Source: Marinoscillum sp.
GTDB taxonomy: Bacteria; Bacteroidota; Bacteroidia; Cytophagales; Cyclobacteriaceae
Assembly: GCF_965229915.1 (NCBI RefSeq)
Contig: NZ_CBDDJZ010000001.1
Span: 4,739,171 to 4,803,170, forward strand
Direction of reading: 5' to 3'
DNA: 64,000 nucleotides
In this document: piece by piece, positions 58,080-59,723 of the stretch
Position numbering within the stretch: position 1 is the stretch's first letter
Layout of the letters: each line of letters begins with the position of its first letter
Notes under the pieces: generated by a model
Seen by the model: the letters and a program-made list of their open reading frames with translations, nothing else
Database searches by the model: none
What the model was told of the DNA's origin: nothing
Made by a program: the position numbers and the translations under genes

Positions 58080-58228
58080 TGTAAGGTGATGAAATTGGCA
58101 GACATGCCCTCCTGTCTCGGGGGTGGAGATAAGGGATAAATCTCGATCTCACGATAAATTACTCCGGTAATTTATCGTGACCAGAGACTAACTGCTCCGT
58201 GGAGGTTCGAATCCTTCCCTTACAGCCA
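58080..58228 (+). tRNA. atypical tRNA-like RNA, anticodon GTC (Asp), 77-nt variable arm
   Basis: Acceptor TGTAAGG/CCTTACA, then G73 and CCA; D arm ATG-AAATTGGCAGA-CAT; anticodon arm CCCTC-CTGTCTC-GGGGG; T arm GGAGG-TTCGAAT-CCTTC. Confidence 0.75.
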
Positions 58229-58280
58229 TCATTTTTGGGTTAATGTTGTTTATTGTCCAAAGGACTCCTTTGGAGAATCT

Positions 58281-58312
58281 GGTCGAGGTAGGGGTGCCTC
58301 GACCTTTTTCTT
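58281..58312 (+). terminator. intrinsic terminator of the tRNA-like transcript
   Basis: GGTCGAGG-TAGGGGTG-CCTCGACC followed by TTTTTCTTTTT. Confidence 0.85.
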
Positions 58313-58620
58313 TTTATAGGCACCAGATCGTTAACTTGACAACTTTTTTATTTTTTGGTCCTGATCATATCGGATGAAGAATCAATTCTATATATCAATC
58401 TTTCATAATTTGTGATTCTACGGATCAATCCGAAAACCTGTGGTGTAATTGTATTTATTTGAGGACGGGCATTCGTTCATTTTAGGTTTTACAGGCGAAA
58501 ATTGGATTAACGAATAAATGACTGTCTGAGCCTTGGATGTTCTCAATTGATAGTGCGCAAACGAAATGGCGAGTTTCTTTTATTCGCCAATTTTTGATTG
58601 GAAAAGCGTTAATAAATGAA

Positions 58621-58700
58621 CGCAGCCCCGGGGCGCGCAGCCTAGATTTTTGCCGGTTCGCCGATGCGACTACTTTTCATCAATGGAAAAGTAGGAGGCC
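58621..58700. repeat. GC-rich palindromic REP/MITE-like element
   Basis: GCCCCGGGGC palindrome and a CTACTTTTC-ATCAATG-GAAAAGTAG hairpin (58670-58694) in AT-rich intergenic DNA; other genomic copies cannot be checked from this window. Confidence 0.45.
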
Positions 58701-58824
58701 ACTACCTTGAAACTCAGAGAAGGTTCAGTGCATTTAAGAGAAGAAAATTTCAACCCTGTCTCTCAAGTCAATCAGGCTTTAACTAATAAATATGTAAGTC
58801 GCCCCACAGAAAAATTGCTTGATC

Positions 58825-59039
58825 CCTTCTCAACTTTCTTAATAATTGTTTTTGTATTAGAAGAACTGCTCCGTGGAGGTTCTGCCGTAGGCATTCCTTC
58901 GGAAGAATCCTTCCCTTACAGCCATCATTTTTGGGTTAATGTTGTTTATTGTCCAAAGGACTCCTTTGGAGAATGCGACCGGCAAGGTCTGGTCGAGGCA
59001 CCTGTGCCTGGCTACGCGCCCCGAACCTTTTTCTTTTAT
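58825..59039 (+). repeat. copy 2 of the tRNA-like 3' half, trailer and terminator (attR-like scar)
   Basis: 58864-58882 is identical to 58190-58208, and 58905-58974 is identical to 58209-58278 (70 nt); there is a 22-nt insertion in the T-loop and a degenerate terminator follows. Confidence 0.93.
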
Positions 59040-59092
59040 TGCCTTTTGCATTTTCAGGTTCATTTGGAAACACCCAGGTTTCTTGAACTCGA

Positions 59093-59445
59093 CCTTCTCA
59101 ACTTTCTTAATAATTGCTTTCGTATTAGAAGAACTGCTCTGTAGAGGTTCTGCCGTAGGCATTCCTTCGGAAGAAATCGATCGAAGGCAGGATGTGCGGC
59201 ATGGAGGTGCGTAAGAGTAATCCTTCCCTTAGAGCCATCATTTTTGTGCATGTCTTGACAAACTTGCTTTGTCATGGTCTATGCTGTCAACTTTGTTCGT
59301 CAGCATTAATGTTGGTTATTGTCCAAAGGACTGCTTTGGAGAATGCGGTATGCTAGGTTTGGACGAGGTATGGCGCACGGCTAGTGGCGCACGGCTAGTG
59401 GTTGCATTAGCTACGCCCCGGAACAAGGCGTCCCCACTTTTTTAT
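59093..59445 (+). repeat. copy 3 (more decayed) of the tRNA-like 3' module
   Basis: Shares a 39-nt upstream arm with copy 2 (37/39 identical, offset 268 nt), the same 22-nt T-loop insert, TCCTTCCCTTAGAGCCATCATTTTTG and TTATTGTCCAAAGGACTGCTTTGGAGAAT, with extra insertions. Confidence 0.88.
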
Positions 59446-59723
59446 TTTAGATAGGTTTTCATATCTGTGCTCCAAGGTTCTGGTTCGGGATCCCGAATTT
59501 AGATCTCAGATTTTTCTCTTTTGTAGCGCATCTATGAATAATTATGAATATGACACTAAATAAGGCTAAGCATTTAACTTTCAATTCGATTATGCTCGTT
59601 GAACTGTGAAGTTAATTACGTTTCACATGCCATGTTAGGAAAAATCGCAATGTCAGTTCTTTTGTCACTTTTTTAGGTTTGAATTGTTGACTTATATTTA
59701 ACTGAAAAATTCAAATTCCGAAA

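Follow-up and report, generated by a model that had tools for sequence, protein, structure and literature searches.

Recurrent hairpin insertions in the loops of displaced tRNA-gene copies of Marinoscillum and their probable link to a GIY-YIG cassette system

From our analysis of a 64,000-nucleotide stretch of Marinoscillum sp. DNA (NCBI RefSeq assembly GCF_965229915.1, contig NZ_CBDDJZ010000001.1, positions 4,739,171 to 4,803,170 of the forward strand; hereafter the window), we describe an array in which a live tRNA-shaped gene (the parent gene, copy 1) is followed by two displaced partial copies of itself (copies 2 and 3) that are interrupted by short palindromic inserts. These inserts are true insertions from a few recurrent families of GC-rich mini-hairpins and are aimed at the loops of tRNA-derived hairpins and of some other hairpins. 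One of them, a 22-nt double mini-hairpin (T-type), is specific to the T-loop, directional and widespread, and it is linked physically and phylogenetically to a family of small GIY-YIG nuclease genes. The explanation that we consider probable is a GIY-YIG cassette system that parasitises tRNA genes and whose displaced copies are locked by loop-directed DNA hairpins. The source genome (G000; contigs C1 and C2) comprises 5.84 Mb in two replicons with 43% G+C and belongs to the genus Marinoscillum (Cytophagales); G001 is its sister genome, M. furvescens DSM 4134, and the other genome codes denote relatives.

The parent gene (58081-58228, + strand) sits 3' of a divergent Lrp/AsnC-type open reading frame (ORF) and is about 150 nt long, with the acceptor stem TGTAAGG/CCTTACA, a Leu-like D-arm, the anticodon loop CTGTCTC, a very long variable arm and the 3' end GCCA. 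Its T-arm is intact (GGAGG-TTCGAAT-CCTTC), and the T-loop GGTTCGAATCC at 58204-58214 served as the empty-site reference for the displaced copies. Genes of this type (A genes, in G000 or relatives) are present in 33 of 41 related genomes; across the order they measure ~125-167 nt, the anticodon-loop sequence CUGUCUC is invariant, the variable arm is long and covaries, and the stems of the acceptor, the variable arm and the T-arm have undergone compensatory changes. A second paralogue lies in G000 at C1:643895-644120 (-). The gene was called neither by ARAGORN nor by Rfam, at gathering and E-value thresholds alike, and a tRNA covariance model run over the whole genome returned canonical genes only. 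Judged from its sequence, the parent gene is a real, conserved and live tRNA-shaped RNA gene.

Downstream of the parent gene follow, in this order, a small hairpin, an intrinsic terminator, a repeat of ~450 nt, the copy 2 unit (58825-59040) and the copy 3 unit (59093-59450), each partial unit repeating the parent gene from the variable arm (3' strand) onwards, with trailer and terminator included. The trailer hairpin TCCAAAGGACTCCTTTGGA (58254-58276, + strand) is itself an insert of ~20 nt when compared with this gene in relatives and with the other G000 paralogue. C1:643895-644120 lacks it, as do the A genes of G001, G003, G010, G004 and others; it is found in the partial units of G001, where its stem shows compensatory changes. 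The terminator of the parent gene (58281-58320, + strand; GGTCGAGG-TAGGGGTG-CCTCGACC plus a T-tract) is intact, and the same hairpin stands 3' of the A genes in relatives.

Alignment with copy 1 resolves the inserts of both displaced copies, all on the + strand, as clean indels. The tRNA-derived part of copy 2 (58864-58928, from the variable-arm 3' strand to GCCA) and its trailer and terminator hold three of them. The T-type 22-mer TGCCGTAGGCATTCCTTCGGAA at 58883-58904 (TGCC-GTA-GGCA followed by TTCC-TTC-GGAA) parts C56 from G57 of the T-loop, with GGTTC (58878-58882) on its 5' side and GAATCC (58905-58910) on its 3' side; a 14-mer, GCGACCGGCAAGGT (R-type, 58975-58988), follows GGAGAAT at the foot of the terminator; and a second 14-mer, GGCTACGCGCCCCG (R2-type, 59010-59023), splits the 3' arm of the terminator, the part GGCTACGCGCCC that interrupts it covering 59010-59021. 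Copy 3 (tRNA-derived part with inserts, 59132-59246) has the equivalents of these three and more: an identical 22-mer (59151-59172); an X-type insert of 46 nt (59173-59218) between the 22-mer and AATCC, which adds 45 nt beyond copy 2; a trailer insert of 59 nt (59247-59305) made of the hairpin TGACAAA-CTTGC-TTTGTCA and an H-type element, TGCTGTCAAC...GTCAGCA (59282-59305); a degenerate R-type 14-mer, GCGGTATGCTAGGT, after GGAGAAT (59345-59358); two perfect tandem R-type 14-mers, TGGCGCACGGCTAG twice (59371-59398), in the former terminator loop; and the R2-like 14-mers TAGCTACGCCCCGG and AACAAGGCGTCCCC with the terminator T-tract (59399-59449), for which the G003 equivalent is GGCTACGCGCCCCGAACTAGGCGTTCCC.

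The elements that an earlier note had picked out from the letters of this stretch (the 22-mer split, the 14-nt inserts, the terminator split, TGACAAA/TTTGTCA, the tandem 14-mers and a perfect palindrome further downstream) were all found where it had placed them, and its reading of the micro-palindromes as insertions rather than point decay is borne out by the clean indels against copy 1 and by the recurrence of the families at the same structural positions, namely T-loop, D-loop, T-stem border and terminator loops. Its claim of serial insertion at the same position in each copy is not supported: copies 2 and 3 are tandem duplicates 95% identical over 83 nt, the 22-mer included, and the 22-mer and 14-mers that they share are therefore common by descent. 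Only the 46-nt insert, the 59-nt insert and the extra 14-mers are specific to copy 3, which, after both copies had inherited the shared inserts from one ancestral unit, gained further inserts and expanded its 14-mers. In addition, 58209-58278 is 100% identical to 58905-58974, this tract beginning exactly at the 22-mer insertion point; the live gene and copy 2 have thus undergone recent sequence exchange.

We then searched the genome for the T-type pattern (TGCCnnnGGCA plus TYCCnnnGGRA, 22 nt), using the reversed pattern as a control. The source genome contains 11 copies, where ~0.01 would be expected by chance, and the control gave none. Each copy is built as a pair of 11-nt hairpins (stem 4 bp, loop 3 nt), has its place in the T-loop between C56 and R57, and is framed by the GGTTC and GA(A/G)(T/G)CC of a displaced tRNA-type copy, always in one orientation; none of the 11 occurs outside a T-loop. 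Nine are in 3' partial copies 60-430 nt downstream of the genes for tRNA-Ser(GGA), Val(TAC), Val(GAC) (four), Thr(TGT) and Phe (two), and the other two are those of the window. Within the genus, the 22-mer is found in three of 13 Marinoscillum genomes, namely G000 (11), G001 (20) and G004 (12), and it is absent from the other 38 of the 41 related genomes searched.

The pattern is spread far beyond the genus. In a 596-Gb collection with one genome per species, more than 115 stretches (a lower bound) carried it, versus ~0.07 expected by chance, and the matches listed comprise ~150 sites, in Ignavibacteriaceae, Melioribacteraceae, Balneolaceae, Calditrichota, LCP-89, Prolixibacteraceae, Marinilabiliales and Roseivirgaceae. 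An intact tRNA gene lies upstream on the same strand at 100 of these ~150 listed sites, at a median distance of 112 nt and representing 26 tRNA species; 20 sites are at locus edges, and at none is the only tRNA on the opposite strand. Arrays of identical 75-120-nt units are common among the listed loci. Among 2.9 million viral contigs only two carry the pattern, and a phage origin of the 22-mer was rejected on this count.

The suggestion in the earlier note that GIY-YIG genes be sought in the genome proved well placed. The source genome encodes 12 small GIY-YIG ORFs of 78-118 aa that consist of the catalytic domain only and match no NCBIfam family. Six of these lie between a tRNA gene and its displaced copy, at His (three), Met, Asp and Ser-GGA. 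Among the listed sites, a GIY-YIG ORF ends less than 400 nt upstream of the 22-mer at 22 of 150. The clean layout is an intact tRNA gene, an ORF starting 1-20 nt after the CCA, a displaced tRNA part with the 22-mer, and then the next unit; examples come from Melioribacteraceae, Roseivirgaceae, Balneolaceae and Ignavibacteria. G000 and G004 both carry the cassette, 22-mer included, at the tRNA-Ser(GGA) locus, and G001 has a truncated copy; the other 10 congeners have no close homologue. The G000 gene (C1:1441027-1441263) is an intact 82-aa ORF with a TTG start, and in G004 the 22-mer starts 20 nt after the nuclease stop codon. The GIY-YIG clade nearest to the Balneolaceae protein (identity 55-59%) is confined to G000, G004 and G001, in the last of which it is truncated, all other matches being at most 45% identical; this clade and the 22-mer thus coincide in 3/3 carrier genomes versus 0/38 non-carriers, for which we calculate a chance probability of ~1e-4.

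Almost full-length relatives of these units were met outside the genus. In a Roseivirgaceae metagenome-assembled genome (MAG), the displaced copy is almost full length and its anticodon loop is split by a double mini-hairpin, CCCCAAAGGGG plus CCCCCTTCGGGG; in an Ignavibacteria MAG, inserts fill D-loop, anticodon arm and T-loop alike. In these MAGs near full-length pseudo-tRNAs alternate with GIY-YIG ORFs, and a 51-nt D-loop insert and an anticodon arm replaced by TCCCGACGAAGTCGGGA were noticed; loop-specific insert families thus exist outside Marinoscillum. Behind tRNA-His in G000 (C1:2986900-2988300, - strand) stand three tandem units of 418 nt, each with an 82-aa GIY-YIG ORF whose stop codon abuts the displaced T-loop (TAG|GTTCGAG); each displaced copy carries two or three hairpin inserts, none of the 22-mer type.

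Displacement of tRNA parts is frequent in the source genome, where 22 of 42 tRNA-type genes have same-strand partial copies nearby, the 3' parts lying downstream of the gene and the 5' parts, with D-loop inserts, upstream; displaced copies of this kind extend across Bacteroidota, Ignavibacteria, Balneolales and Calditrichota. A search with a 14-nt anchor located 23 displaced 3' ends, which belong to 18 genes, and not one of the 23 has kept its T-arm uninterrupted. On the 5' side, a partial tRNA-Ala(TGC) with the 14-nt D-loop insert TCGGGTCGCGCAGA stands ~70 nt upstream of each live tRNA-Ala(TGC) (partial copies at C1:1583640-1583730 and 3384800-3384890; genes at C1:1583565 and C1:3384892, just 3' of tRNA-Ile). 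Similar 5' fragments were noticed upstream of Pro, Ala(GGC) (two copies), Ser(TGA), Glu, Thr, Met and His.

Orthologous and paralogous sites are filled in some cases and empty in others, a comparison that the earlier note had suggested. The first displaced copy of Val-TAC has a G-type insert only and an open T-loop, the second has G-type, 22-mer, X-type and S-type inserts, and in the partial units of G003 and G010 the T-loops are empty. At the tRNA-Phe locus, G010 has neither displaced copies nor inserts; G003 has one displaced copy with two G-type inserts and one S-type; G004 has one with the 22-mer only; G001 has six and a G-like insert; G006 has two, the first with a 17-nt G-like insert at the T-stem/T-loop junction; and G000 has two, with S, T and S inserts. 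Breakpoints and inserts differ among G003, G004, G001, G006 and G000, and the events recur independently. The arrays grow by tandem duplication. At tRNA-Val(GAC), a displaced copy of G003 (C29) carries a G000-type acceptor/T-stem 3' end and one displaced copy of G000 (C1:2975150-2975700) carries a G003-type 3' end, a reciprocity that looks like tRNA allele replacement between lineages. In the draft genome G011, contigs C288 and C51 stop in the A gene and in tRNA-Phe, at the T-loop or a few bases from it (one inside the loop, the other in the T-stem), which suggests that short-read assemblies break at such repeat arrays and that drafts under-count them.

The remaining inserts fall into further families. 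The G-type ((A)CGGTYCGCCGYWGCG(A), 15-17 nt) has 16 copies in G000 (reversed control 0); it is found at the T-stem/T-loop junction of Val-TAC, Arg-CCT, Gly and Arg-TCG, in the D-loops of Arg-TCG 5' partial copies, in non-tRNA terminator-type hairpin loops and in three of the four copies of the 450-nt repeat. The R-type 14-mers (GGCGCACGGCTAGT; in the opposite orientation GGCTACGCGCCCCG) include GCGACCGGCAAGGT of the window, whose family reads CGCACGGCTAGTGG in G001 and GCGACCGGCTAGGT in G003; they occur in the D-loops of the 5' partial copies of Pro, Ala, Ser-TGA and Met, and are variably present in palindromic repeats around a second GIY-YIG family. GGCTACGCGCCCCG is also seen in the D-loop of a pseudo-tRNA-Met at C1:4993565, and in tandem in G012 and G003. 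The S-type (CCTGCC-loop-GGCAGG) comes after TCC, either that of the T-loop or that of the anticodon stem, and is found inside other palindromes as well. The P-type (TCCCGAnnnnTCGGGA) occupies D-loops at His, Met and Arg-CCT, with nine of 18 matches within 1 kb of a tRNA versus none of eight for the control. X-type inserts (45-51 nt) recur at the same place in the second displaced copy of tRNA-Val(TAC) and at C1:1927269, all ending in GTGCGTAWGAGT and then AATCC, and the H-type (TGCTGAC...GTCAGCA) recurs in displaced copies behind tRNA-His (three times) and tRNA-Asp.

It is as degenerate families that the inserts recur. The enrichment of exact k-mers that the earlier note looked for is weak, with seven, eight and five genome matches, and seven and eight for the 11-mers where ~3 are expected; of the two things that it had named as refuting it, non-enrichment is seen for the exact k-mers, whereas absence elsewhere is not, the insert families recurring as insertions at other loci. 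Its proposal of an active process inserting hairpins into stem-loops is partly supported, in that the families recur in the loops of unrelated tRNA copies and of some non-tRNA hairpins, and not in that it took each copy in the array to have been hit separately.

Several properties of the 22-mer bear on the level at which it is structured. In its second hairpin, positions 13/21 are T-A at 54 and C-G at 76 of the 131 listed sites, with one C-A and no T-G, so that 130 of 131 are Watson-Crick and the stem alternates in a compensatory manner between TTCC/GGAA and TCCC/GGGA. Loop variants at these sites are GAA (41), AAA (27), GCA (20) and GTA (1), ACA and others being found too. The purine-N-A triloops (GAA, AAA, GCA and similar) lie on the sense strand in loop 1 and on the antisense strand in loop 2, so that each DNA strand carries one especially stable hairpin of the C-GNA-G type, in keeping with what the earlier note had said of d(C-GNA-G) hairpins. 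When folded with DNA parameters, the T-arm with its insert reaches -8.9 kcal/mol (z = -3.0), versus -0.7 for the intact arm. On account of the missing T-G pair, the opposite-strand symmetry of the triloops and the DNA fold energy, we favour a model in which the inserts would act as DNA-level structure, either single-stranded or cruciform.

We propose that these arrays probably derive from a small selfish cassette, in which a GIY-YIG gene of ~80 aa stands directly behind a tRNA gene and is followed by a displaced part of that tRNA; the 22-mer belongs to this cassette and travels with it. By analogy with SegB of phage T4, its nuclease may recognise the T-psi-C motif of tRNA genes, and the resulting breaks could lead to allele replacement and, in the 3' part of the gene, to integration and tandem duplication. 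The hairpin inserts, acting at the DNA level, would destroy the 11-bp T-psi-C motif in the spare copy and chop up the direct-repeat homology that it shares with the live gene, and cassette and gene alike would thereby escape re-cutting and recombinational loss. The array of the window would then be a derivative without the ORF, which the intact copy behind tRNA-Ser(GGA) might service in trans.

The analogy is with a GIY-YIG endonuclease of phages T4 and T6 that recognises a T-psi-C motif of 11 bp and cleaves tRNA genes at their 3' end, frequently right behind CCAR (PMC2330249), that drives tandem amplification of tRNA-segB units with a cleavage motif, RAWTSGAAC, equal to the T-loop on the other strand (PMC13096335), and that is encoded by an ORF of 666 bp, about 220 aa. 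As with SegB, putative nuclease genes are lodged here among tRNA genes, cassettes are present or absent at orthologous sites (the Ser(GGA) locus among congeners; the tRNA-Phe locus, empty in G010), and tRNA-nuclease units stand in tandem. The GIY-YIG ORF adjoins its presumed target at six G000 tRNA loci and at 22 of 150 listed sites, and the window has none. Unlike SegB, the predicted proteins are ~80-aa catalytic domains only and are encoded on chromosomes in the Bacteroidota group; they leave behind a displaced tRNA part with defined hairpin inserts in its loops, which is undescribed for SegB.

Several observations weigh against this proposal. The ~80-aa catalytic domain comes without an obvious DNA-binding domain; 85% of the listed 22-mer sites have no detectable adjoining nuclease ORF; and the array of the window, by its ORF list and by six-frame translation of its cargo, has no GIY-YIG gene or remnant of one, the cargo being a non-coding repeat. 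The conservation of the 22-mer stems has to be read with the reservation that it follows in part from the search pattern. Immunity to re-cutting is not the whole story, as the live tRNA keeps its T-loop. Finally, since G-, R- and S-type inserts are found in non-tRNA hairpins too, a more general loop-directed process that is independent of the nuclease is a serious rival.

More tentatively, the elements could form an undescribed class of selfish elements across Bacteroidota, Ignavibacteria, Balneolales and Calditrichota, in which a minimal GIY-YIG gene, riding directly behind tRNA genes, duplicates part of the tRNA gene and locks each conserved loop of the displaced copy with site-specific double mini-hairpins, and ORF-less derivatives are maintained in trans. 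Each loop would have its own lock: for the T-loop the 22-mer, for the anticodon loop pairs of CCCCnnnGGGG, and for the D-loop TCCCGAnnnnTCGGGA. What is new is these loop-specific hairpin locks, homing-type nuclease cassettes and miniature hairpin repeats being kinds of element already known. Our search of the full-text literature found no description of tRNA-linked minimal GIY-YIG cassettes or T-loop hairpin inserts in these bacteria, which does not prove that none exists.

The choice of target gives the proposal its wider interest. Genes for tRNAs rank with the most conserved DNA in biology, and nearly all tRNAs share one T-psi-C motif. An element targeting this motif could in principle parasitise any tRNA gene in any host, and our data point to a family of such elements in a large bacterial group. 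It would also represent a new way of living with an essential target, in which neither an intron nor an intein is used and part of the gene is instead duplicated, the spare being disabled by hairpin inserts. The arrays make pseudo-tRNAs that annotation tools miss and mark hot spots of tRNA allele replacement, and the 22-mer is a simple and highly specific sequence marker for finding such elements. As an enzyme, the small nuclease could be specific for a structure or a motif. How hairpin repeats of such shortness move is an old question, for which the system provides a tractable example, and loop-directed placement of hairpins, if true, would be a new DNA transaction.

Among the alternatives, the one that survives best, unlikely as we judge it, treats the inserts as independent miniature mobile DNAs moved by a transposase or HUH enzyme that acts on single-stranded hairpin loops, with the GIY-YIG genes as mere hot-spot neighbours. 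In its favour, the families are discrete and of defined length and show no target duplication; the 16 G-type copies (control 0) are spread over T-arms, D-loops, terminator-type loops and three of four unrelated repeat copies, R-type inserts are present or absent around the second GIY-YIG family, and S-type inserts sit inside other palindromes. Genes for Y1-transposase-like proteins exist in the genome as well, with three Y1_Tnp matches, but their flanks hold other hairpins (e.g., GCCTCGGAGAGGC and TAGTCCTCGTTTGCAACGAGGACT). Against this alternative also stand the confinement of the 22-mer to T-loops, the coincidence of one GIY-YIG clade with the 22-mer (3/3 carriers versus 0/38) and the low copy numbers (11-20 per genome).

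Two kinds of known mobile hairpins were compared in this context. REP/REPIN sequences are short palindromes of extragenic regions for which movement in the form of single-stranded hairpins has been put forward, and their RAYT partners are Y1 HUH transposases. The link to REP/RAYT systems drawn in the earlier note from the GTA loop was not upheld: that loop is found at only one of the 131 listed sites, the loops and ends of the 22-mer at these sites carry no conserved GTAG/CGTC tetranucleotide terminal tag, and copy numbers are low (11 for the 22-mer, which has a single structural target, and 16 for the G-type, versus tens to hundreds of dispersed REP copies). Membership in REP/REPIN-RAYT was rejected on the missing tag, the other hairpins beside the RAYT-like genes and the low copy number. 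The second kind are the small dispersed repeats (SDRs) of Nostoc and other cyanobacteria, reportedly described by Elhai and colleagues in 2008 (Genome Res 18:1484) as hairpin repeats of ~20-27 nt that show compensatory stem changes and presence/absence polymorphism and insert into repeats or hairpins. The 22-mer resembles SDRs in its shortness, its hairpins with compensatory stem changes and its filled and empty homologous sites; SDRs, too, have no known enzyme. It belongs to a different phylum and is probably different in sequence, and SDRs are not reported to have a tie to tRNA loops or to a nuclease gene.

Improbable in our view is that the insert-bearing units are functional RNAs or parts of RNAs (3' stabilisers, processing blocks of a tRNA-nuclease co-transcript, or small RNAs), the hairpins being selected to keep a partial tRNA from being treated as a tRNA. 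The units do lie between a tRNA promoter and a terminator, the start of the ORF 1-20 nt after CCA in several lineages implies co-transcription, stems change in a compensatory manner and the trailer hairpin covaries between species. Nevertheless, no G-U pair occurs among the 131 listed sites, the stable triloops on opposite strands suit DNA and not one RNA strand, and the extent of the units and their spacers differ greatly between sister species, with no Rfam family to hold them.

Ordinary decay of duplicated DNA, in which slippage or template switching would make chance palindromes without any dedicated process, is very improbable and is already largely refuted by the recurrence of the inserts across loci and phyla. 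The 14-mers do behave like a minisatellite (variable number tandem repeat), with 0-4 tandem copies in the terminator loops of the otherwise near-identical units of the G001 array and two in the window; their copy number varies by slippage, and tandem duplication accounts for the features common to copies 2 and 3. Unlike a minisatellite, the 14-mer family is also found as single copies, in either orientation, in D-loops and other hairpins. The 22-mer hits the same phosphodiester bond in 26 tRNA species of several phyla among the listed matches, with controls at zero. Local template switching (fold-back) was tried and rejected, as the inserts of the window match their flanks within 150 nt, directly or as reverse complement, over no more than 6-8 nt.

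Elements that integrate into tRNA genes duplicate the tRNA 3' end at attL/attR, and partial-tRNA arrays are known at the tycheposon sites of Prochlorococcus; the present loci resemble them in the restored intact gene, the displaced 3' fragment downstream and the build-up of arrays by serial events. That the window holds integrase-mediated island scars, i.e., serial attL/attR remnants at a tRNA-like gene, is nonetheless hardly credible: direct repeats of a tRNA-type 3' end with cargo between them are a classical island signature, and at Val(GAC) the 3' end found in the displaced copies is that of an allele from another species, but the units are tiny (75-700 nt overall, 270-700 nt in the array), the upstream ends of the copies vary in their distance from the T-loop, 5' fragments lie upstream of many genes too, and an insert inside the T-loop is not predicted by an att model. 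Between 57.9 and 59.7 kb of the window there is no integrase-sized ORF, the largest having 145 aa and the ORFs overlapping across repeats, and integrase att scars were rejected with neither such an ORF nor an island between the repeats.

Some further features of the array and its surroundings were noticed. The cargo between the parent gene and copy 2 is a non-coding dispersed repeat of ~400-450 nt (58420-58815, + strand) with four copies in the genome, the others at C1:~1927150-1927600, ~3230900-3231400 and ~5062350-5062800; at two sites it is flanked by displaced tRNA-type 3' ends, those at C1:1927xxx being tRNA-Ser-like. A 17-mer in the repeat (CGGTTCGCCGATGCGAC, about 58654-58670; CGGTTCGCCGWTGCGAS) is cleanly present in three of the four copies and absent from the fourth, and a 12-mer in a hairpin loop of the repeat is likewise cleanly present or absent among them. 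The repeat might be a small RNA gene or ORF-less cargo. Downstream of copy 3, the perfect 14-nt palindrome TTCGGGATCCCGAA (59484-59497) is preceded by AAGGTTCTGG and occurs once in the genome; it resembles the P-type D-loop hairpins, with uncertain family membership, and may be a P-type relative or a further decayed T-loop remnant. Elsewhere in G000, the second GIY-YIG family (~100 aa, YVYIVTN...TLYVGVTNNL) is found in arrays of another palindromic repeat (CGTCATCCCACGG... / ...CGTGGAATGACG) at C1:4048750-4051450, 4064050-4064950 and 3476150-3477050 and at C2:29400-30350. A degenerate cluster of odd tRNA-like sequences lies 3' of a second tRNA-Tyr at C1:1338300-1338850 (-) and includes a truncated tRNA-Leu 5' half whose D-loop, AATTGGCAGAC, is the same as that of the parent gene in the window.

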